Source: Escherichia coli (GTDB lineage Bacteria > Pseudomonadota > Gammaproteobacteria > Enterobacterales > Enterobacteriaceae). Taken from it: a stretch of DNA of 64,000 nucleotides. Of the stretch, positions 8,794 to 44,047 are shown one piece after another (position 1 is the stretch's first letter; each line of letters opens with the position of its first letter). Both the position numbers and the translations under genes were made by a program. The notes under the pieces are model-generated. The model did not search any database, had not been told where the DNA came from, and saw only the letters and a program-made list of their open reading frames with translations. The stretch lies in the NCBI RefSeq assembly GCF_046105845.1, contig NZ_CP151004.1, one strand, 5' to 3'.

Positions 8794-9033
8794 TTTAACC
8801 GTCCTGTTTCGTGTTGCATCTGCGTTGACTGCACATACTCACTCTGGTCACTTACTTATGTAAGCTCCCGGAGATTCGTAAGTTTGTCAACTTGCTGAAA
8901 CCCGAAACAGTTAGGTTAAAGATAACAAGATATTAGAATCAGGCCGGGGCGTATCGCGCTCCGTAAACACGGTCGTACATCCAGCCGGTAGCCTGGTTCC
9001 TTGCATTGAGTGATGTACGGAGTTTATAGAGCA

Positions 9034-14029: not shown

Positions 14030-14273
14030 TTTCCGCGTCATGCTTCACGCCGCAGATGCGTTGGCTGCGCTCGTTCACCCCAGTCACATAGTTATCTATG
14101 CTCCTGGGGCTTCACTCACTTGCCGCGTGATTCGGCCTTTTGGCCTCACCCCTCCGGGGCCAGCGCAAGCGCTGTTCAAAACGCAATGCGTTTTGTCCTG
14201 CAACGCGAATCATTTAGCGGAAAAATCCTGGGGCTGCCAACTGGCGGCCCTTTTACAAAGAAGGATAACTAGA

Positions 14274-15675: not shown

Positions 15676-16452
15676 ATGTCCGAAACAAAAAACGAACTTG
15701 AAGATCTGCTGAAAAAAGCAGCAATCGAACCGGCGCACCGCCCGGCCTTTTTCCGTACTCTACTGGAATCCACCGTCTGGGTGCCGGGTACGGCGGCGCA
15801 GGGCGAGGCTGTGGTTGAAGATAGCGCGCTTGATTTACAGCACTGGGAAAAAGAAGACGGCACCAGCGTCATTCCTTTTTTTACCTCGTTAGAAGCACTT
15901 CAACAGGCGGTTGAAGACGAACAGGCATTTGTCGTAATGCCCGTTCGCACATTGTTTGAGATGACCCTTGGCGAAACGCTCTTCCTTAATGCCAAACTGC
16001 CAACCGGTAAAGAATTTATGCCGCGTGAAATCAGTTTGTTGATTGGTGAAGAAGGAAATCCGCTGAGCAGCCAGGAAGTACTGGAGGGCGGTGAATCGCT
16101 GATATTATCGGAAGTCGCAGAGCCACCAGCACAAATGATTGATTCTCTCACCACCTTATTTAAAACTATTAAGCCGGTGAAGCGTGCTTTTATTTGTTCA
16201 ATTAAAGAGAACGAAGAGGCACAGCCTAATTTACTTATTGGCATTGAAGCCGATGGTGATATCGAAGAAATTATTCAGGCGGCGGGAAGTGTAGCGACCG
16301 ATACATTACCTGGCGATGAACCCATCGATATTTGTCAAGTGAAAAAAGGGGAAAAAGGAATTAGCCACTTTATTACCGAACATATTGTGCCATTCTATGA
16401 ACGTCGCTGGGGTGGTTTTTTGCGTGACTTTAAACAGAACCGGATAATCTAA
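15676..16452 (+). CDS. sseB: enhanced serine sensitivity protein SseB
   Basis: Start at MSETKNELEDLL (258 aa); synteny downstream of pepB. Confidence 0.9.
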   Translation: MSETKNELEDLLKKAAIEPAHRPAFFRTLLESTVWVPGTAAQGEAVVEDSALDLQHWEKEDGTSVIPFFTSLEALQQAVEDEQAFVVMPVRTLFEMTLGETLFLNAKLPTGKEFMPREISLLIGEEGNPLSSQEVLEGGESLILSEVAEPPAQMIDSLTTLFKTIKPVKRAFICSIKENEEAQPNLLIGIEADGDIEEIIQAAGSVATDTLPGDEPIDICQVKKGEKGISHFITEHIVPFYERRWGGFLRDFKQNRII

Positions 16453-16753
16453 AATATGCCGCCCCAAAGGGCGGCATTCGGGCTTACCTGCTGTTCTGAA
16501 GGTTGTTAACCACCAATAAATTGTTGCCGGAGAGATTCCGGTTATTATTTACCTCGGTTAACAGCGCACCAGAAACAATAAGTACGATACAAAAGCACCG
16601 TATCTTCATTGTGCGGTCCATGCGAAGACCGCATCACGACAGCACCACTGGCGATATTGCCGCGATAGCAAGCGCTGAGACGCGCGTGCCCTAACGGTCG
16701 CGGAACATCCTTTCCTTAAGCCAGCGCCCGCTTGCGAGACGGCGGAAAGGTCC
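16450..16753 (-). ncRNA. candidate RyfA-like transcript (putative type I toxin mRNA)
   Basis: Minus-strand -10-like TATTAT (16766-16761) and minus-strand terminator hairpin ATGCCGCCC-tttg-GGGCGGCAT + ATTTT (16477-16451) delimit ~304 nt; position matches the sseA-sseB intergenic sRNA locus known in enterobacteria (from memory). Confidence 0.4.
16484..16609 (-). CDS. candidate small hydrophobic protein (41 aa; 45 aa from ATG 16621)
   Basis: Minus-strand ORF MKIRCFCIVLIVSGALLTEVNNNRNLSGNNLLVVNNLQNSR with one predicted TM-like segment; weak SD; in frame with an upstream strongly SD-preceded mini-ORF (16708-16691) separated by two stops. Confidence 0.3.
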   Translation of the reverse strand: MKIRCFCIVLIVSGALLTEVNNNRNLSGNNLLVVNNLQNSR

Positions 16754-16797
16754 GCAGTGGATAATACACTAACAGAACAATAATAACTCTCTTTTGC

Positions 16798-16930
16798 TTG
16801 ACAAAAAGAGGGTTACTGGCGAGTATTGTCTCCGCTGAGACGCGCTTGCATTACTACGGTAATACAACCTGCTGGAAAGGCCGCGAACCGGACCAGCAAC
16901 AAAAAACCGCCTGATTTTGGCGGTTTTTTG
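16798..16930 (+). ncRNA. candidate small RNA unit 1 (promoter to intrinsic terminator; antitoxin-like)
   Basis: Perfect -35 TTGACA (16798-16803), 17-bp spacer, GAGTAT (16821-16826); terminator ACCGCC-tgatttt-GGCGGT + T6 (16901-16930); 5' end 16833-16845 identical to plus strand 16673-16685. Confidence 0.4.
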
Positions 16931-17073
16931 TTGTTTAAAGAAAATGAAATTACACGTTTAAGTAATATCTTTTACCAGTTAGTATATTTTAATATTAAGC
17001 GGGATTTTTTTATATTTGTCTGAATTCGGACTGATAAGCCAAATGAATTCAAAATCTATCCTTTTTTATCTAC

Positions 17074-18265: not shown

Positions 18266-21200
18266 ATGAAAAAGTTACGCGTAGCCGCCTGCATACTAAT
18301 GCTGGCGCTGGCAGGGTGCGACAACAACGATAACGCGCCAACAGCGGTGAAAAAAGATGCGCCTTCTGAAGTTACTAAAGCGGCCTCTTCAGAAAACGTG
18401 AGTTCAGCAAAACTTTCCGCGCCGGAGCGACAAAAACTGGCCCAACAGAGTGCCGGTAAGGCGCTGACATTGCTGGATCTCTCTGAAGTTCAACTTGATG
18501 GCGCAGCCACGCTGGTGCTGACGTTCTCCATTCCTCTCGACCCGGATCAGGATTTCTCACGCGTTATCCATGTCGTCGATAAGAAAATCGGCAAAGTGGA
18601 TGGTGCCTGGGAGCTGTCAGATAATCTTAAAGAGTTGCGTTTACGCCACCTCGAACCGAAACGTGATTTGATCGTCACTATTGGCAAGGAGGTCAAAGCA
18701 CTCAACAACGCAACCTTCAGTAAAGATTACGAAAAAACTATAACTACCCGCGATATCCAACCCAGCGTAGGTTTTGCCAGCCGTGGCTCGTTGTTACCTG
18801 GTAAAGTTATTGAAGGGCTGCCGGTAATGGCGCTCAACGTTAACAATGTCGATGTTAACTTCTTCCGTGTGAAGCCCGAATCTCTGCCTGCATTCATTAG
18901 CCAATGGGAATACCGCAATTCGCTGGCGAACTGGCAGTCTGACAAACTGCTGCAGATGGCGGATCTGGTCTACACCGGACGGTTTGATCTCAATCCTGCG
19001 CGTAACACCCGTGAAAAATTATTGCTGCCGCTGGGCGATATCAAACCGCTTCAGCAGGCAGGCGTGTATCTGGCTGTGATGAATCAGGCTGGACGTTACG
19101 ATTACAGTAATCCCGCGACGCTGTTTACGTTAAGTGATATCGGCGTTTCAGCTCACCGTTATCACAATCGTCTGGATATCTTTACCCAAAGTCTGGAAAA
19201 CGGCGCGGCCCAGCAAGGAATAGAAGTCTCTTTATTAAATGAGAAAGGGCAGACTCTGACTCAGGCAACCAGTGATGCTCAGGGGCATGTGCAGCTGGAA
19301 AATGATAAAAATGCGGCATTACTGCTGGCGCGTAAAGACGGTCAGACAACGCTACTCGATTTAAAACTTCCGGCGCTGGACTTAGCAGAATTTAACATTG
19401 CTGGCGCGCCAGGCTATAGCAAACAGTTTTTCATGTTTGGCCCGCGCGATCTTTATCGCCCAGGTGAAACAGTCATCCTCAATGGTTTATTGCGTGATGC
19501 AGATGGTAAAGCATTGCCCGATCAACCCATCAAGTTAGACGTGATTAAACCCGACGGGCAGGTACTCAGGAGCGTCGTTAGTCAGCCGGAGAATGGCCTC
19601 TACCACTTTACCTGGCCACTCGATAGCAATGCGGCAACCGGTATGTGGCATATTCGCGCTAACACGGGCGATAACCAGTATCGGATGTGGGATTTCCACG
19701 TCGAAGATTTTATGCCAGAGCGCATGGCGCTGAATCTGACCGGTGAGAAAACCCCGCTAACGCCGAAAGATGAAGTGAAATTCTCCGTGGTGGGGTACTA
19801 CCTGTATGGTGCACCTGCTAATGGTAATACTTTGCAAGGGCAACTTTTCCTGCGCCCACTGCGTGAAGCTGTGTCAGCCTTACCTGGTTTTCAATTCGGC
19901 GATATAGCTGCCGAAAATCTTTCCCGCACGCTGGATGAAGTTCAGTTGACGCTGGATGATAAAGGGCGTGGCGAAGTTTCTACAGAAACCCAGTGGAAGG
20001 AAACGCATTCCCCATTACAGGTTATTTTCCAGGGTAGTTTGCTGGAATCGGGCGGTCGCCCGGTGACGCGCCGCGCTGAGCAGGCTATCTGGCCTGCCGA
20101 TGCATTGCCGGGGATCCGTCCGCAGTTCGCCTCGAAATCGGTTTACGATTATCGCACTGACAGCACGGTGAAACAGCCCATTGTTGATGAAGGCAGTAAC
20201 GCCGCTTTTGACATCGTTTATAGCGATGCGCAAGGCGTAAAAAAAGCCGTGTCGGGCTTGCAGGTGCGCCTGATTCGCGAACGCCGCGATTACTACTGGA
20301 ACTGGTCAGAAGATGAAGGCTGGCAGTCACAGTTTGATCAAAAAGATCTGATTGAAAATGAACAAACTCTGGATCTTCAGGCGGATGAAACCGGTAAGGT
20401 CAGTTTCCCGGTAGAGTGGGGCGCTTATCGTCTGGAAGTCAAAGCGCCGAATGAAGCGGTCAGTAGTGTGCGTTTCTGGGCTGGCTATAGCTGGCAGGAC
20501 AACAGCGACGGGAGCGGTGCCGTGCGACCTGACCGTGTCACGCTGAAACTGGATAAAGCCAGTTATCGCCCTGGCGATACCATTAAGTTGCATATTGCCG
20601 CGCCAACGGCGGGTAAAGGTTATGCGATGGTCGAGTCCAGTGAAGGGCCGCTGTGGTGGCAAGAGATTGATGTTCCGGCTCAAGGGCTGGATCTGACGAT
20701 TCCGGTCGATAAAACCTGGAATCGTCATGATCTGTATTTAAGTACGCTGGTGGTACGTCCTGGCGATAAATCTCGCTCCGCGACGCCAAAACGTGCGGTT
20801 GGGGTGTTGCATCTGCCGCTTGGTGATGAAAACCGTCGCCTCGATCTGGCGCTGGAAACCCCCACCAAAATGCGCCCCAATCAGCCATTAACCGTGAAAA
20901 TTAAAGCCAGCAATAAAAACGGTGAGATGCCAAAACAGGTGAATGTGCTGGTGTCTGCCGTTGATAGCGGTGTGCTGAATATTACTGATTACGTTACCCC
21001 CGATCCGTGGCAGGCGTTCTTTGGTCAGAAACGCTATGGTGCAGACATTTACGATATTTACGGTCAGGTCATTGAAGGTCAGGGGCGTCTGGCAGCTCTG
21101 CGTTTTGGTGGCGATGGTGATGAGCTGAAACGTGGTGGTAAACCGCCGGTCAATCACGTCAATATTGTCGCGCAGCAGGCGCTGCCGGTAACGCTCAACG

Positions 21201-28748: not shown

Positions 28749-29867
28749 ATGCATAACCAGGCTCCAATTCAACGTAGAAAATCAACACGTATTTACGTTG
28801 GGAATGTGCCGATTGGCGATGGTGCTCCCATCGCCGTACAGTCCATGACCAATACGCGCACGACAGACGTCGAAGCAACGGTCAATCAAATCAAGGCGTT
28901 GGAACGTGTTGGCGCTGATATCGTCCGTGTCTCCGTACCGACGATGGACGCGGCAGAAGCGTTCAAACTCATCAAACAGCAGGTTAACGTGCCGCTGGTG
29001 GCTGACATCCATTTCGACTATCGCATTGCGCTGAAAGTAGCGGAATACGGCGTCGATTGTCTGCGTATTAACCCTGGCAATATCGGTAATGAAGAGCGTA
29101 TTCGCATGGTGGTTGACTGTGCGCGCGATAAAAACATTCCGATCCGTATTGGCGTTAACGCCGGATCGCTGGAAAAAGATCTGCAAGAAAAGTATGGCGA
29201 ACCGACGCCGCAGGCGTTGCTGGAATCCGCCATGCGTCATGTTGATCATCTCGATCGCCTGAACTTCGATCAGTTCAAAGTCAGCGTGAAAGCGTCAGAC
29301 GTCTTCCTCGCTGTTGAGTCTTATCGTTTGCTGGCAAAACAGATCGATCAGCCGCTGCATCTGGGGATCACCGAAGCGGGTGGTGCGCGCAGCGGGGCGG
29401 TTAAATCCGCCATTGGTTTAGGTCTGCTGCTGTCTGAAGGCATCGGCGACACGCTGCGCGTATCGCTGGCGGCCGATCCGGTCGAAGAGATCAAAGTCGG
29501 TTTCGATATTTTGAAATCGCTGCGTATCCGTTCGCGAGGGATCAACTTCATCGCCTGCCCGACCTGTTCGCGTCAGGAATTTGATGTTATCGGTACGGTT
29601 AACGCGCTGGAGCAACGCCTGGAAGATATCATCACTCCAATGGACGTTTCGATTATCGGCTGCGTGGTGAATGGCCCAGGTGAGGCGCTGGTTTCTACAC
29701 TCGGCGTCACCGGCGGCAACAAGAAAAGCGGCCTCTATGAAGATGGCGTGCGCAAAGACCGTCTGGACAACAACGATATGATCGACCAGCTGGAAGCACG
29801 CATTCGTGCGAAAGCCAGTCAGCTGGACGAAGCGCGTCGAATTGACGTTCAGCAGGTTGAAAAATAA
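28749..29867 (+). CDS. ispG: 4-hydroxy-3-methylbut-2-en-1-yl diphosphate synthase
   Basis: 372 aa; [4Fe-4S] Cys ligands (CPTCSR ... GCVVNGPGE). Confidence 0.95.
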
Positions 29868-29977
29868 TAACGTGATGGGAAGCGCCTCGCTTCCCGTGTA
29901 TGATTGAACCCGCATGGCTCCCGAAACATTGAGGGAAGCGTTGAGGGTTCATTTTTATATTCAGAAAGAGAATAAAC

Positions 29978-38017: not shown

Positions 38018-39595
38018 ATGACGGAAAACATTCATAAGCATCGCATCCTCATTCTGGACTTCGGTTCTCAGTACACTCAACTGGTTGCGCGCCGCGTGCG
38101 TGAACTGGGTGTTTACTGCGAACTGTGGGCGTGGGATGTGACAGAAGCACAAATTCGTGACTTCAACCCAAGCGGCATTATTCTTTCCGGCGGCCCGGAA
38201 AGCACCACCGAAGAAAACAGCCCGCGTGCGCCGCAGTATGTTTTTGAAGCAGGCGTACCGGTATTCGGCGTTTGCTATGGCATGCAGACCATGGCAATGC
38301 AGTTGGGCGGTCACGTTGAAGCCTCTAACGAACGTGAATTTGGCTACGCGCAGGTTGAAGTCGTAAACGACAGCGCACTGGTTCGCGGTATTGAAGATGC
38401 TCTGACCGCAGACGGTAAACCTCTGCTCGATGTCTGGATGAGCCACGGCGATAAAGTTACCGCTATCCCGTCCGACTTCGTCACCGTAGCCAGCACCGAA
38501 AGCTGCCCGTTTGCCATTATGGCTAACGAAGAAAAACGCTTCTATGGCGTACAGTTCCACCCGGAAGTGACTCACACCCGTCAGGGTATGCGCATGCTGG
38601 AGCGTTTTGTGCGTGATATCTGCCAGTGTGAAGCCCTGTGGACGCCAGCGAAAATTATCGACGATGCTGTAGCTCGCATCCGCGAGCAGGTAGGCGACGA
38701 TAAAGTCATCCTCGGCCTCTCTGGTGGTGTGGATTCCTCCGTAACCGCAATGCTGCTGCACCGCGCTATCGGTAAAAACCTGACTTGCGTATTCGTCGAC
38801 AACGGCCTGCTGCGTCTCAACGAAGCAGAGCAGGTTCTGGATATGTTTGGCGATCACTTTGGTCTGAACATTGTTCACGTTCCGGCAGAAGATCGCTTCC
38901 TGTCAGCGTTGGCCGGCGAAAACGATCCGGAAGCAAAACGTAAAATCATCGGGCGCGTTTTCGTTGAAGTATTCGATGAAGAAGCACTGAAACTGGAAGA
39001 CGTGAAGTGGCTGGCGCAGGGCACTATCTACCCTGACGTTATTGAATCTGCCGCATCTGCAACCGGTAAAGCACACGTCATCAAATCTCACCACAACGTG
39101 GGCGGCCTGCCGAAAGAGATGAAGATGGGCCTGGTTGAACCGCTGAAAGAGCTGTTCAAAGACGAAGTGCGTAAGATTGGTCTGGAGCTGGGCCTGCCGT
39201 ACGACATGCTGTACCGTCACCCGTTCCCGGGACCAGGCCTCGGCGTTCGTGTACTGGGCGAAGTGAAGAAAGAGTACTGCGACCTGCTGCGCCGTGCTGA
39301 CGCCATCTTCATTGAAGAACTGCGTAAAGCGGACCTGTACGACAAAGTCAGCCAGGCGTTCACCGTCTTCCTGCCGGTACGTTCCGTTGGTGTAATGGGC
39401 GATGGTCGTAAGTATGACTGGGTTGTTTCTCTGCGTGCTGTCGAAACCATCGACTTTATGACCGCACACTGGGCGCATCTGCCGTACGATTTCCTCGGTC
39501 GCGTTTCCAACCGCATTATCAATGAAGTGAACGGTATTTCCCGCGTGGTGTATGACATCAGCGGCAAGCCGCCAGCTACCATTGAGTGGGAGTGA
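38018..39595 (+). CDS. guaA: GMP synthase (glutamine-hydrolysing)
   Basis: 525 aa; GATase motifs GVCYGMQ, ATP-PPase SGGVDSS; ends ...IEWE. Confidence 0.96.
39581..39595 (+). repeat. left copy of islet-flanking direct repeat (functional guaA 3' end)
   Basis: ATTGAGTGGGAGTGA, 13/15 identical to right copy; encodes IEWE-stop. Confidence 0.75.
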
Positions 39596-39634
39596 GGCTA
39601 TTATTTAAACTATTGTTTTATTTGATTTAGTGAG

Positions 39635-39675
39635 TGCCATTGATGATATTGACTGCATTATCAATGGCATTTTTC
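39635..39675 (+). terminator. islet-borne intrinsic terminator now serving guaA
   Basis: 10-bp stem TGCCATTGAT / ATCAATGGCA with 15-nt loop, followed by TTTTT. Confidence 0.55.
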
Positions 39676-39913
39676 ATGGTATAAGGCCGACGCTGAATCG
39701 AAGATATAGCAAATACCATGTGACCCTATCAGCAAATGCCATGGTATCGACAACCGGGGGCATTGCAGCGCTGTGCTGATGCCATCGATGCCCGCTTTTG
39801 GTCAGAACCGCTCTCTCGACCCAAGCCTCCAGATCGTTAAATATGCGCCAGAGGAGCACCTCGTGATCGAAATTGTGAACAAGACAGCCGCCGCTCGGAA
39901 TCGAAGTATCCAT
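39674..39913 (-). CDS. hypothetical 79-aa ORF inside islet (possible gene remnant)
   Basis: ORF only; no recognisable motifs; Trp-rich; no clear SD. Confidence 0.15.
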   Translation of the reverse strand: MDTSIPSGGCLVHNFDHEVLLWRIFNDLEAWVERAVLTKSGHRWHQHSAAMPPVVDTMAFADRVTWYLLYLRFSVGLIP

Positions 39914-39980
39914 ATGGGTGAATAAAGTTTGCGGAAAACACGCTGAGAAAATAGAAAAGCGTCAATGAAGGGACATAGCA

Positions 39981-41261
39981 ATGGCGATTAACGGAGAGGA
40001 CGGTGTTAGTGCAGTCACCGTGGATGAACTACTCAAGCAAGGCCTTCGGATACCGAACTATCAACGCCCATACAGTTGGGAAGTATCGACCGCTCTACAA
40101 CTGGTGGATGATCTTAGCGAAGCTCTTCGAGATACCGAAAGAAAAGATATTCCCTATGTTTTGGGTGCAATCATTCTTCACGATGATGGTGAGTATCTCA
40201 ATGTAGTCGACGGACAGCAACGTCTGCTGACTTTGCGAATGATTCTTGCGGCCTTAGATCCGATAAATCATCAGATTTCGGTGTCTGGTAACAGCGAAAC
40301 TCCTGTCTCCCTGGTTTGGATAGAGCTTCAAAGGCGCCTGTCGCAGTTGGAAGATAAAAAAGAATTTTTGGATTTTATCTGTCACAAATGTCAGTTGGTG
40401 CGTATTGTGACGGACGATATTGATGAGGCATTTCGTGTCTTTGATTCCCAGAACTATCGCGGCAAACCGCTTGCCCCTCATGACTTGCTCAAAGCACACC
40501 ACCTCCGCGAAATGCACGATGAGTCCGCTGCTATGAAAGTGGCTGTCGTTGAGGCTTGGGAAGCCGTAAATGATGAGGATCTGGACAGGCTTTTTTCTAC
40601 TTTTTTATACCGGATATCCAAGTGGTCACGAGGCGAAAGCTCGCTCGAATTTGCTATTCGGGACATCGGGATGTTTAAGGGAATTTCATCACGATCCCAC
40701 AGATCATTTTCGCCAAATCTGCGATATCACCTTGCAGCACAAGCCGCTATGCCACTTCTAAGTGCATGGGCGGTGTCCTCTACACATGATGCACGAAATG
40801 CCGGGCGCAGCCGCTTTCAGCTTGATGCCCCGATAATCGCTGGGCGCTCATTTTTCGAGATGGTGACATTCATGCTTGACGAATTGAAGATACTGGAAAA
40901 AGAGGTTATCGACAGAGGTTTCAAAAACTTTGGCCCATCTCAAAGTCGCTACCGCTACGTGTACGAATTGTTCATTGCCGCGCTGCTTTGCTATACAAAC
41001 AAGTTTGGCGATGAAGATGTGGATGAAGTGCGAAATAGATTATTCGCATGGGCATATGCCTTGCGGGTCGAGTTACTTCGTGTGCAATTTGTATCTGCTG
41101 ACAACCGAGCTCGAGGTAAAAACGATGCAAATAAATCGCCTTTTGTTTTGCTACGCAACGCGATGACTGGAAGTGTTGTCCGCAAACTTCCAATAGCAAG
41201 TCAGCCATACAACGATAACCACGAAAAGGAACTCGTTGCTTTTATCAAGGGGCTGCAATGA
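39981..41261 (+). CDS. DUF262 (ParB/Srx-like NTP-binding nuclease-family N-terminal domain) protein, no DUF1524
   Basis: Motifs IPNYQRPYSW (40050-40079), DGQQRL (40209-40226), FRVFDSQNYRGKPLAPHDLLKAH; SD AAGGGA upstream; 426 aa. Confidence 0.85.
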   Translation: MAINGEDGVSAVTVDELLKQGLRIPNYQRPYSWEVSTALQLVDDLSEALRDTERKDIPYVLGAIILHDDGEYLNVVDGQQRLLTLRMILAALDPINHQISVSGNSETPVSLVWIELQRRLSQLEDKKEFLDFICHKCQLVRIVTDDIDEAFRVFDSQNYRGKPLAPHDLLKAHHLREMHDESAAMKVAVVEAWEAVNDEDLDRLFSTFLYRISKWSRGESSLEFAIRDIGMFKGISSRSHRSFSPNLRYHLAAQAAMPLLSAWAVSSTHDARNAGRSRFQLDAPIIAGRSFFEMVTFMLDELKILEKEVIDRGFKNFGPSQSRYRYVYELFIAALLCYTNKFGDEDVDEVRNRLFAWAYALRVELLRVQFVSADNRARGKNDANKSPFVLLRNAMTGSVVRKLPIASQPYNDNHEKELVAFIKGLQ

Positions 41262-43210
41262 GCAAGAAGGAGTTGAGACCCGAACTGATAACAGTAGGCA
41301 AGCTATTCACGGGCTATTATCTGATTCCTATTTATCAACGGAACTATGCTTGGCGGGCCGAACAGATTGAGCAACTTATCAGCGATATTCAAGGCTCGGT
41401 GGTTGGGGGCCAGGACGACTATTTTCTTGGGAACCTTGTTGTAATCAAGCGGGGTAGAGAGGACGAGTTCGAGGTCATAGATGGACAACAACGACTTACA
41501 ACCCTCTATCTGCTTCTGACCTTCCTGGAGCAAGACGGTGAGGGTGGGAAGCTGTCGATTGGCCATGCAGGCCACTTGCAATATGAGTCGCGCGCACGGG
41601 CAACGGAAGCCCTGCGGCGAGTAGCACAGGAGGCGGCTAAGGGGCACGTCCGACCGCAGGGCTCCACGAGTAATGCAGATGCTGGCATCCATGAAGGCTA
41701 CAGCATCATCAATCAGTTCTTCAAACAAAATGAAACCCTTAATCGCTCACGCGAAAAATTCTCCGATTTCTTGCTAAAGAAGGTTACTGTCGTCCGTGCC
41801 TCGCTGCCACCCAATACCGACCTCAATCGCTACTTCGAGATCATGAACACTCGTGGGCAGCAACTCAAGCAGGTTGATATTGTTAAGGCTCGCCTGATGA
41901 GCAAGCTGCCCAATCAATATGAACGCGAATGCTTCGCGTGGGTTTGGGATGCCTGTGCTGACATGGATTCTTATGTCCAGATGTCTCTGACCCGTGGTGA
42001 CACCAGTTTACGAAACAAAGTATTTGGCGATGAATGGTCCTGGCTGGAGGTGACCAGCTTCGCGTCGCTAATGGAAAGTCGTCCGCAATCCGACATCAGT
42101 TCATTAAGGCAATCCTCCGAAGGGGTATCGTTGTCCTTGGATGAGGCGTTGTCAAAATACGCTAAAGAGATCGAGTCAAATTCCACTGAAGACGAGGGCA
42201 ACGAGCGGTTTCGTTCGACTATTGAGTTTCCGGCCTTTCTGCTACACGTTCTAAGAATTATGAAAGGCGATGAGGTCGAAGACGAAGGCCAGCTTGACGA
42301 CAAGCGCCTCATCAAGTCATTTGACGACGCCGTAAATAATGTACCCGATGCTAAAGCCGATTGGGTGCGTAGCTTTGCATTTATGCTTCTTAAGTGCCGT
42401 AACCTCTTCGATGGCTTCATCTTGAAGCGTCAATTCACGGCGAACATCGGTGACGATGGCGATTGGTCTCTCCAGCGATTGAAGAAAGGCGGTGCGGACA
42501 AGAAGCCAGCCCCGACGTACATCCATGTTTTCTCGGCCAGCAATGGAAACTTGGAGGAGGACAGCGGTGCTGACCCACATACCCGAGATGTATTGTTGCT
42601 TCAGTCCATGCTTCGGATTACCTACACTTCTCCGCGAACGATGCACTGGATTACCAAAGTTCTTCGCTGGCTATCCGTTAAAGCCCCTCAAGACGCGAAA
42701 CATGCGGATCTTGCCGATTTGTTGAAGGGGTATGCCCGCAGCAAGGTTAAAGAGACATTCCCCTTTGAGGAAGATCAGCAACCACAAGGGTTTGGTATCA
42801 GCCGTATCGTCTTTTCATACCTCGACTATCTTCTGTTGAGTGATTCCTCAAAACGAGATTTCAAATTTCAGTTCAGAACTTCCATTGAGCACTTTTATCC
42901 ACAGCATCCGGACAAAGAACAGTCGGGCGCGGCTGTTTCAGGTTCTAGCCTTAACCTGCTTGGCAACCTCGCGCTCGTAAGCGTCAGCGCGAACTCAAAA
43001 TTCAGCAATAGCCTTCCCAGAGCGAAGGCCGAAAACTTCAAGGATACGATTGAACTTCAAAGTCCCAAGCTCAAGAGAATGGCGGAAATCGCTCGAAATA
43101 CAAGCTGGGACGATCAGCAGATAACAGCACATCATGAAGAGATGGTGACATTGCTTCGTGATGATGTAAGTCTGGTGGAGGCAAGCGGAAGATCCTACCC
43201 GGGGCGTTGA
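41258..43210 (+). CDS. GmrSD-like fusion protein: N-terminal DUF262 + C-terminal DUF1524 (His-Me finger/HNH-like endonuclease)
   Basis: N-term IPIYQRNYAW, DGQQRL (41480-), FEIMNTRGQQL...DIVKARL; C-term SIEHFYPQH (EH at 42887-42892) and LLGNLALVSVSAN; 650 aa; ATGA start/stop overlap with upstream gene. Confidence 0.85.
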   Translation: MSKKELRPELITVGKLFTGYYLIPIYQRNYAWRAEQIEQLISDIQGSVVGGQDDYFLGNLVVIKRGREDEFEVIDGQQRLTTLYLLLTFLEQDGEGGKLSIGHAGHLQYESRARATEALRRVAQEAAKGHVRPQGSTSNADAGIHEGYSIINQFFKQNETLNRSREKFSDFLLKKVTVVRASLPPNTDLNRYFEIMNTRGQQLKQVDIVKARLMSKLPNQYERECFAWVWDACADMDSYVQMSLTRGDTSLRNKVFGDEWSWLEVTSFASLMESRPQSDISSLRQSSEGVSLSLDEALSKYAKEIESNSTEDEGNERFRSTIEFPAFLLHVLRIMKGDEVEDEGQLDDKRLIKSFDDAVNNVPDAKADWVRSFAFMLLKCRNLFDGFILKRQFTANIGDDGDWSLQRLKKGGADKKPAPTYIHVFSASNGNLEEDSGADPHTRDVLLLQSMLRITYTSPRTMHWITKVLRWLSVKAPQDAKHADLADLLKGYARSKVKETFPFEEDQQPQGFGISRIVFSYLDYLLLSDSSKRDFKFQFRTSIEHFYPQHPDKEQSGAAVSGSSLNLLGNLALVSVSANSKFSNSLPRAKAENFKDTIELQSPKLKRMAEIARNTSWDDQQITAHHEEMVTLLRDDVSLVEASGRSYPGR

Positions 43211-43400
43211 CTTCTTTGAATAACCGCTTTTGGACGAAAGTCCCTTGTGGAGTGCAAGTTGTCAGTCTAAAAGCGTTTTGCGTCAGGCGACACGATCAGT
43301 ACAGCTCCCAGGTTTTCTTACCATGGTATTTTGTGTGGTATCGACATGCAAATATAATGCTATTCTATTGATTTTACAGTGTTTTAAGGCGGCATTAATC

Positions 43401-43415
43401 ATCGAGTGGGAATGA
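43401..43415 (+). repeat. right copy of islet-flanking direct repeat (displaced ancestral guaA 3' end)
   Basis: ATCGAGTGGGAATGA; would encode IEWE-stop; immediately followed by the A-tract/hairpin/T-tract terminator. Confidence 0.75.
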
Positions 43416-43436: not shown

Positions 43437-43470
43437 AACAAAACCCTCTGTTACTACAGAGGGTTTTTTA
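43437..43470. terminator. bidirectional intrinsic terminator (ancestral guaA / yfgI)
   Basis: AACAAAA-CCCTCTG-ttacta-CAGAGGG-TTTTTT; A-run upstream and T-run downstream. Confidence 0.8.
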
Positions 43471-43507: not shown

Positions 43508-44047
43508 TTAATTAAACCAGCTGTCCGATTTGTTCTCTTCTGCTTTGCCCACGCTTTTCATCAGATCGCGACCGCCTTCAGTCATATTTCTGTTTGCGTC
43601 AGCTTCAGATTGCACCACATCGGTTTGCGCAGCTTTGTGCTTCAGTTCCTGATCGATAAATTCGTTTTCTCGCTTAACGCGGGCTTCTTCTTTCGCCAGC
43701 GCCAGTTTTTGTTTCTGAATCTCTAAGCTGCGTAGCTCATCTTCATAACTTTGATCGCGTTTTTTGTCCGCAGTGGCTTCGGCATCCAGTTTATCCTGAC
43801 GAGCTTTCTTATTTGCCGCTGCCGTTGCCGCTCTTTTGTTAGCGGCGGCCTGGGCGTTTGCGCGACGTTGCTTCTCTTGCTGGATTTCCCTGTTGCGCTC
43901 CGCGACCCATTCGTCATGCTGCCTTTGCTCTTCATTTTTACCTTGCTGTTCCGCTTCTGCGACAGCAGAGAGTTGATCCTGCAATGATGAGGCGATAGCC
44001 GGATAGCTTAAGGAGGCTAAGATGGCGCAAAGAAAAACTTTCTTCAT
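43508..44047 (-). CDS. yfgI: DUF4223-type periplasmic coiled-coil protein YfgI
   Basis: 179 aa; signal peptide; Lys/Glu/Gln-rich; synteny. Confidence 0.85.
   Translation of the reverse strand: MKKVFLCAILASLSYPAIASSLQDQLSAVAEAEQQGKNEEQRQHDEWVAERNREIQQEKQRRANAQAAANKRAATAAANKKARQDKLDAEATADKKRDQSYEDELRSLEIQKQKLALAKEEARVKRENEFIDQELKHKAAQTDVVQSEADANRNMTEGGRDLMKSVGKAEENKSDSWFN

Follow-up and report, generated by a model that had tools for sequence, protein, structure and literature searches.

The 3' end of guaA, the GMP synthase gene, is an established integration site of mobile elements. The sequence 5'-GAGTGGGA-3' at this position is the experimentally supported core recombination site of the resistance island GIsul2, whose integrase (Int) excises and integrates the whole island in recA- E. 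coli and also moves, again in recA- E. coli and at the guaA attB, the integrase-less CR2-sul2 unit that is bounded by an internal attachment (att) site, attLR, and by attR (PMC9376610). About 1,100 Pseudomonadota integrative mobilizable elements (PIMEs) have been described, which are dependent on IncP plasmids, carry defence systems and are defined by the co-occurrence of int, alpA, a replicase gene and trbJ/trbL; members of several of their subfamilies use a guaA-adjacent attB in E. coli, Providencia and other hosts (bioRxiv 10.64898/2026.01.12.698999). Here we analysed a 64-kb stretch of E. coli DNA, referred to as the window, in which an islet of 3.8 kb lies between guaA and yfgI. The islet carries the GIsul2 core at both ends and two restriction genes, and we consider it, with a probability of about 0.8, to be an integrase-less cassette that has guaA att sites of the GIsul2/PIME family, was made by site-specific recombination and is moved in trans.

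Two other described systems are close to this locus. One is the cis-mobilizable elements (CIMEs) of the ICESt1/ICESt3-type integrative and conjugative elements of Streptococcus, a concept covered in a review (PMC5704250) and in ICEberg 2.0 (PMC6323972). Like the islet, CIMEs end in att sites on which a helper integrase acts, carry neither a recombination nor a conjugation module and accrete in tandem with the helper. They differ from the islet in phylum, integrase family and target gene (fda versus guaA), and the helpers of the islet appear to include integrative and mobilizable elements (IMEs) and prophages besides conjugative elements. TgvAB of Vibrio cholerae VPI-2 is a two-protein type IV restriction system of the GmrSD family; both proteins are needed, and the system restricts T-even phages with glucosylated hydroxymethylcytosine (PMC11411939).

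Attachment sites and breakpoints of the islet

An initial annotation of the window had reported that a 15-bp copy of the guaA end recurs at the far side of the islet. Both copies were found as described, and ATTGAGTGGGAGTGA (39581-39595) and ATCGAGTGGGAATGA (43401-43415) are identical at 13 of 15 positions. With up to two mismatches allowed, they were the sole matches on both strands of the window, and the exact 8-mer GAGTGGGA occurs in it at 39584 and 43404 only. A looser similarity reaches leftward to 30 nt (22/30 identical; 39566-39595 versus 43386-43415). The shortness of the repeat is the one point in favour of a chance similarity, with the islet having arrived by an unrelated mechanism. 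This explanation is refuted by dinucleotide-preserving shuffles of the window (a mean of 0.03 matches to the 15-mer, with 0 of 100 shuffles reaching two), by the position of the repeats exactly at the breakpoints of the empty site and by the occurrence of the same core at the ends of GIsul2, one PIME and two prophages at the guaA locus. The features at the two junctions are as follows.

38018-39595, plus strand: guaA (GMP synthase), an open reading frame (ORF) ending IEWE-stop, named from the annotation of homologous loci; its last 4 nt (39592-39595) come from the element
39581-39595, plus strand: attL, ATT GAGTGGGA GTGA, with the core at 39584-39591; the same attL is present in 8 other chromosomal copies
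43401-43415, plus strand: attR, ATC GAGTGGGA ATGA, with the core at 43404-43411
43440-43467, no strand assigned: native bidirectional terminator of guaA and yfgI (A-tract/hairpin/T-tract), now separated from guaA by the islet
43508-44047, minus strand: yfgI, the right-hand chromosomal neighbour, convergent with guaA, an ORF named from the annotation of homologous loci

The alignment with an islet-free guaA-yfgI region that the initial annotation had proposed gave exact breakpoints that agree with the repeats. The islet-free E. coli locus L001 reads ...CCAGCTACC ATT GAGTGGGA ATGA TTTGACCCTGCAC..., followed by the same terminator as in the window; written as one stretch, the site is ...ACC ATTGAGTGGGAATGA TTTGACC..., with nothing intervening. 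In the window, the left junction reads ACC ATT GAGTGGGA GTGA GGCTATT... and the right junction reads ...TTAATC ATC GAGTGGGA ATGA TTTGACC. Because L001 aligns across both junctions, the breakpoints are exact: the chromosomal sequence continues through 39591 and begins again at 43404, and the 3812 bp between them (39592-43403) are element-specific. Thus, attL combines a chromosomal left half (ATT) with an element right half (GTGA), and attR combines an element left half (ATC) with a chromosomal right half (ATGA). This mosaic of the two mismatches is, as read from the junctions, the pattern expected of recombination between attP and attB, and it places the crossover inside the 7-8 bp overlap GAGTGGG(A). 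We conclude that both 15-base repeats are genuine att sites, one left and one right, of a mobile cassette of 3.8 kb.

The same alignment confirmed that the insertion lies within the last codons of guaA. The element does supply a new 3' end for the gene, as had been proposed, to the extent of its final GTGA alone, that is, the third base of the Glu codon and the stop; the codon is GAG in place of GAA, and the stop is preserved. The displaced native end (GAA TGA) remains at attR. The terminator begins about 22-24 nt beyond the right repeat, consistent with the roughly 22 bp noted before, and in islet-free strains it directly follows guaA. An ORF of 61 amino acids at 43230-43415 that ends ...IIEWE-stop was rejected as a gene and is an artefact that stems from the guaA end displaced to attR.

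Among complete E. coli genomes, the guaA|yfgI junction is uninterrupted in 4463 of 5426, and in the remaining ~18% the match breaks at the core. A GIsul2-type resistance island at this locus has the order int-alpA-repAC-trbJKL-ars-resG-ISCR2, with attL ATT GAGTGGGA ATGATT and attR ATC GAGTGGGA ATGATT. The published left boundary of CR2-sul2, GGGAGTGACGGG..., gives attLR as GAGTGGGA|GTGAC (PMC9376610), and its right half is the same as that of the attL of the islet. In E. coli Z1323CEC0008, a podovirus-like prophage has its tyrosine integrase adjoining guaA and both of its att sites are ATTGAGTGGGAATGATT. This prophage and a second, P2-like one in E. coli GMF054 share with the islet the core and the logic of orientation; they differ from it in being complete phages with their own integrases, and the P2-like one has other arm motifs. 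A literature search with the bare 8-mer core returned only unrelated primer sequences.

The islet shares with these elements an insertion at the GAGTGGGA core in the last codons of guaA and a duplication of the core at both ends, and it lacks a tyrosine integrase, or AlpA, of its own next to attL, its only ORFs being two DUF262 genes. Searches with tblastn using the integrases of a GIsul2-like element, the guaA prophage and PIME1EcPF16 found no integrase or remnant in the islet or in the 64-kb window, in agreement with the initial annotation, which had seen no integrase. PIMEs use the same guaA-adjacent attB in E. coli and Providencia and have accessory regions rich in defence systems, features that recall the islet; by contrast, none of int, alpA, the replicase gene and trbJ/trbL is present at 39596-43400. 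Because the int, alpA, rep and trb genes are absent, the cassette is not a member of GIsul2 or of the PIMEs. It has instead the make-up of an integrase-less att-bounded unit, with two att sites of a helper family and no recombination or transfer modules.

Contexts and tandem arrays of the cassette

The 3805-bp interior of the islet was found in 81 complete E. coli genomes, and guaA and yfgI are its immediate neighbours in at least 76 of these. The cassette also lies at the host's own guaA in three other genera, alone in Kluyvera sichuanensis and Shewanella indica and beside a decayed integrase in Providencia rettgeri. The guaA gene of each of these hosts is 70-90% identical in nucleotide sequence to the E. 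coli gene over most of its length, and attR there keeps the native ...GAGTGGGA ATAA stop. The cassette was also found on 468 plasmids, 464 of them from Klebsiella and 394 predicted to be conjugative; the two that were examined are IncFIB plasmids. Their left junction reads ATA GAGTGGGA GTGA GGCTATT and is preceded by the IS1-truncated right arm of another element, and their right junction, ATC GAGTGGGT AACA..., marks a secondary, non-guaA site with only GAGTGGG in common. When 11 copies from these contexts were aligned, all had the same element-side ends, with GTGA GGCTATTATTT... next to attL.

On the Klebsiella plasmid pKPN1705-1 (L008 6563-7103), and on about 464 plasmids in all, the islet is preceded on its left by the right end of another att-type element, truncated by IS1. 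This fragment has a 138-amino-acid ORF ending in an R-x4-H (HEPN-like) motif and an arm-site pair of its own. Its intact parent was not found in searches that were swamped by the IS1 end, the fragment being always IS1-truncated. In E. coli TUM2820 (L007 6001-7600), no more than the first 442 nt of the islet are left, and an insertion of ISKpn26 is associated with the loss of the rest and of yfgI.

The larger guaA element with an integrase and both cargo genes, for which a search of related genomes had been suggested, is present in E. coli EcPF16 (L058 4983-23821), the strain named as the host of PIME1EcPF16 (bioRxiv 10.64898/2026.01.12.698999). From guaA, this locus runs through attL (ATT GAGTGGGA ATGA), int, a luxR-type regulator, alpA, repA, traJ, trbJ, trbL, HigA, PIN, NERD-like and YecA-like genes to an internal att site (ATT GAGTGGGA GTGA, 19986-20000), which is followed by the islet, attR (ATC GAGTGGGA ATGA), IS66 and yfgI. 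The internal att site divides the element into a PIME backbone, with all of the genes that define a PIME, and the cassette, and the layout with three att sites parallels attL/attLR/attR of GIsul2. The integrase of the EcPF16 element shares 87% identity with GIsul2 Int and 53% with the Int of the Z1323CEC0008 prophage. We found no mention of an internal att site in the EcPF16 PIME in the text of the preprint (bioRxiv 10.64898/2026.01.12.698999).

Tandem accretion with an internal att site was also seen with other neighbours. In E. coli GMF054 (L062 19900-20020), the islet, in the window's own sequence variant, stands behind the P2-like prophage with the junction ATC GAGTGGGA GTGA. In Buttiauxella agrestis (L010 22-7896), it stands behind a defence island that encodes the Gabija proteins GajA and GajB together with a type IIG restriction-methyltransferase, and the internal core there is degenerate, with one G lost (GAGTGG-AGTGA). 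The neighbour remnant on the plasmids is a further case, and in the window the islet is solo. Directly to the right of attR in P. rettgeri RB151 (L012 12320-12966), we observed fragments of a GIsul2/PIME-type integrase (amino acids 42-94 and about 164-324, 37-73% identity) and, beyond them, genes that appear to be chromosomal. These fragments are a decayed helper, in the order opposite to that in EcPF16.

The initial annotation had suggested that the islet may be a decayed integrative element. On this reading, a full element such as a PIME, a GIsul2-like island or a prophage would have entered guaA in this lineage, and deletions would then have removed its backbone together with the integrase. 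The lack of an integrase in the islet, the existence of integrase-bearing elements with the same cargo at guaA and the decayed integrase adjoining the islet in Providencia agree with this proposal. However, the attL-side GTGA GGCTATTATTT... is identical in 11 of 11 copies, including those behind internal att sites and those on plasmids, and is therefore the cassette's own end and not a deletion scar. Furthermore, the left arm has no homology to any of the three integrases by tblastn, and the same 3.8-kb unit in six contexts is not expected from independent deletions. We therefore regard decay in place as highly improbable; the islet is a discrete unit whose own ends are identical in at least six contexts.

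The copies fall into two lineages. Lineage A comprises those of E. coli A30, EcPF16, the Klebsiella plasmids, Providencia and Shewanella, which are 99.4-99.9% identical throughout, and this identity indicates a recent spread that crossed both genus boundaries and the divide between plasmids and chromosomes. Lineage B comprises the window and seven further E. coli, the F9792 group (12 E. coli), Buttiauxella and Kluyvera; identity is 97-98% among its members and ~96% between them and lineage A. In F9792 (L059 5317-5470), a 152-nt segment, ATAA ACCCTGTACAT..., replaces the normal 92-nt spacer between the attR core and yfgI. This segment and a divergent yfgI were present in the 12 E. coli genomes with the 97.9% islet variant only and at no empty site, so that in the F9792 lineage the islet and its foreign flank were imported together by homologous recombination.

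An exchange of the islet by flanking homologous recombination had been the second suggestion of the initial annotation. As the origin of the junctions it does not hold, and it may still spread the already inserted islet within E. coli. As the proximate route into the window lineage, recombination in guaA/yfgI after transduction or conjugation would be compatible with a site-specific origin of the junctions in another E. coli or a relative, and the 12 genomes of the sister variant and the solo state of most E. coli copies are in its favour. On the other hand, the right flank of the window is native (99.0% identical to an empty-site strain), and single-nucleotide polymorphisms do not become denser near the junctions, so that the window yields no evidence for imported flanks. 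Its 33-50 kb region diverges evenly from other E. coli, by about 1-6% (also put at a uniform 2-5% or so), and homologous exchange leaves the insertions beside the divergent guaA genes of other genera and on plasmids unexplained. Accordingly, we consider this route into the window lineage unlikely, with a minor share of the probability. The even divergence suggests a host from an E. coli lineage that is relatively divergent, and not a local import. In xseA-guaB, the window has up to 25-30 differences per 500 nt, and over the flanks no more than 98.5% identity is reached with the best of the empty-site genomes.

Arms and cargo

Two non-coding arms flank two genes in the interior of the islet.

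39596-39980, plus strand: left arm, non-coding, with seven [AG]TGG[CT]A[TC] arm-type motifs and no integrase remnant
39634-39640 (minus), 39664-39670 (plus), 39676-39682 (plus), 39713-39719 (minus), 39736-39742 (minus), 39741-39747 (plus) and 39779-39785 (minus): the left-arm motif copies
39635-39674, plus strand: hairpin followed by TTTTT, with 13-nt arms at 39635-39647 and 39657-39669 (minimum free energy -33.5 kcal/mol, z -3.75), overlapping the arm-type sites
39981-41261, plus strand: tgvA-like gene, 426 amino acids, Pfam GmrSD_N (DUF262) and DUF7834
41258-43210, plus strand: tgvB-like gene, 650 amino acids, Pfam GmrSD_N (DUF262) and GmrSD_C (DUF1524, His-Me nuclease)
43211-43400, plus strand: right arm, non-coding, with a tandem motif pair, ATGGTAT (43323-43329) and GTGGTAT (43335-43341), about 60 nt left of the core

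The motif [AG]TGG[CT]A[TC] occurs nine times in the 300 nt made up of the 200 nt after attL and the 100 nt before attR, compared with 0.28 copies expected from the background, a difference whose P value is inflated because the motif was defined after these sequences had been viewed; the 3.2-kb coding part has one copy. The right arms offer evidence that is more independent of this choice. In those of PIME1EcPF16, GIsul2, the guaA prophage and the plasmid neighbour, as in that of the islet, a tandem pair of motifs spaced by 12 nt lies 52-95 nt to the left of the right core, and these right arms are otherwise unrelated in sequence. In the right arm of the Buttiauxella neighbour, one copy is exact and the other degenerate. 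Between attL and int, GIsul2 and PIME1EcPF16 have sets of the motif in both orientations, as the left arm of the islet does. These motifs are putative arm-type integrase binding sites. The right arm of the P2-like prophage of GMF054 has another tandem motif, GACGGTAAA, twice and 12 nt apart, which suggests a different integrase specificity on the same core.

Across all copies, the left arm is conserved at 96-98%. At the equivalent place, an obvious terminator is present in both GIsul2 and the guaA prophage; a simple terminator scan after guaA within the islet gave no call, and the longer-looped hairpin listed above came from folding. This hairpin may act as a substitute terminator for guaA. 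An Rfam scan of the islet at E<=1 found no RNA family, and a crude test for an origin of transfer with the IncP-type nick motif (ATCCTGY) found no copy in it. Elsewhere in the window, Rfam matches above the gathering score, located at 8923-9032, 14131-14203, 16451-17065 and 29867-29958, were the iscRS stability element, AaHKsRNA22, the ryfA and IS128 small RNAs and sroE, which are ordinary E. coli features. The window contains no tRNA gene.

The two cargo genes overlap by ATGA (41258-41261). As read from the translations, the tgvA-like protein has the motifs YQRPY, DGQQR and FDSQN, and the tgvB-like protein has YQRNY, DGQQR and FEIMN, followed by IEHFYPQH...GNLAL...ANSKFSN, the H...N...N of a His-Me nuclease. 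PADLOC gave partial N-terminal matches only, to HEC-06/Orf5/SspE, sequence matches of the tgvB-like protein in the PDB were to DUF262/SspE proteins, and an NCBIfam scan assigned neither protein to a family. The gene pair is adjacent in more than 40 loci of Proteobacteria, Firmicutes, Bacteroidetes and Spirochaetes. Near-identical proteins from Shimwellia blattae and from Klebsiella pneumoniae plasmids were recognised by the TgvAB detection model of PMC11411939 and appear as homologues of VC1767 (TgvA) and VC1766 in its Table S5; the exact sequences of the window are not in that table.

The pair thus has the TgvAB architecture of adjacent genes, DUF262-only and then DUF262 plus DUF1524, with QR, DGQQR and FxxxN in both proteins and the His-Me motif in the second, and we assign the cargo on these motifs and domains to the TgvAB-type two-protein type IV restriction systems of the GmrSD family. 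It differs from TgvAB in lying outside any type I restriction-modification operon, on an att-bounded cassette of its own. By homology, the cargo would be expected to cut the sugar-modified hydroxymethylcytosine DNA of T-even phages. According to the PIME preprint, cloning from one of two PIMEs of E. coli gave a 'previously characterized' system that protects against T2, T4 and T6 (bioRxiv 10.64898/2026.01.12.698999); this system may be the DUF262 pair.

Proposed movement in trans and its implications

Because the cassette encodes no recombinase, it must move in trans, and the precedent of CR2-sul2 and the comparative pattern described above argue for mobilization by a helper integrase. CR2-sul2, like the islet, is an integrase-less unit with two att sites that have the core GAGTGGGA and with a left att of GAGTGGGA GTGA, and it is distal to an integrase-bearing island at the 3' end of guaA (PMC9376610). 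The two differ in cargo, CR2-sul2 carrying ISCR2/sul2 resistance genes and the islet a phage-restriction pair without a rolling-circle transposase; the arms of the islet share the core and motifs only, and the islet is mostly alone at guaA. Furthermore, movement in trans was shown for CR2-sul2, and for the islet we infer it.

The helper would be the integrase of a co-resident PIME/GIsul2-type element or of a guaA-targeting prophage. The cassette could integrate as a small circle, or it could arrive as the distal module of a tandem and stay behind when the helper excises by recombination between attL and the internal att site. Conjugative Klebsiella plasmids with the cassette at the secondary site would serve as a vehicle between species, and tandem composites as another carrier. 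Excision is predicted to give the attP junction ...TTAATCATCGAGTGGGAGTGAGGCTATT... (also given as ...GGCATTAATCATCGAGTGGGAGTGAGGCTATTATT..., with the k-mer ATCATCGAGTGGGAGTGAGGCTAT) and a restored attB, ATTGAGTGGGAATGATTTGACC.

Several observations weigh against a cassette mobilized in trans, in addition to the inflated P value of the arm motif. The attP circular junction and an islet-islet tandem were both absent from the complete E. coli genomes, plasmids, viral contigs and metagenome contigs that were searched, so that excision is without direct support, and the 64-kb window contains no helper integrase. Conservation in the right arm (88-95%) is below that of the coding region. Moreover, the solo state of at least 76 of the 81 E. 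coli copies also fits an old, now immobile insertion with vertical or homologous spread.

A more far-reaching view, which we put forward tentatively and do not favour over its alternatives, is that the cassette is an active hitchhiker on hitchhikers. It would be a minimal defence module of a single function with its att pair as the sole mobility equipment, taken up and dropped by several guaA-targeting helpers and shuttling between the chromosome and conjugative plasmids across orders of Gammaproteobacteria. The helpers in question would be the IncP-dependent PIME/GIsul2 elements and the P2-like prophage and, possibly, the podovirus-like guaA prophage with a related Int, which was not seen beside the islet. 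If this view is true and general, att-bounded defence cassettes would form an integron-like layer of immune-gene exchange among elements that share an attB.

The att core, integrase-less units mobilized in trans and TgvAB are already published. That this restriction pair forms an att-bounded cassette of its own, which occurs singly at guaA, in tandem behind helpers of several kinds and on plasmids of Klebsiella by the hundred, seems to be unreported. Because all the separate ingredients have been published, the advance is incremental.

Taking these results together, the cassette accounts for a defence islet that is an "orphan", lacking mobility genes; islets of this kind are a frequent puzzle in surveys of E. 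coli defence islands. The guaA attB, occupied in ~18% of complete E. coli genomes, is common to IMEs, resistance islands, prophages and the cassette, and this shared site is a route for a type IV restriction system among E. coli, Klebsiella plasmids, Providencia and Shewanella. The internal att site of EcPF16 suggests that the accessory region of at least one published PIME contains a separable unit.

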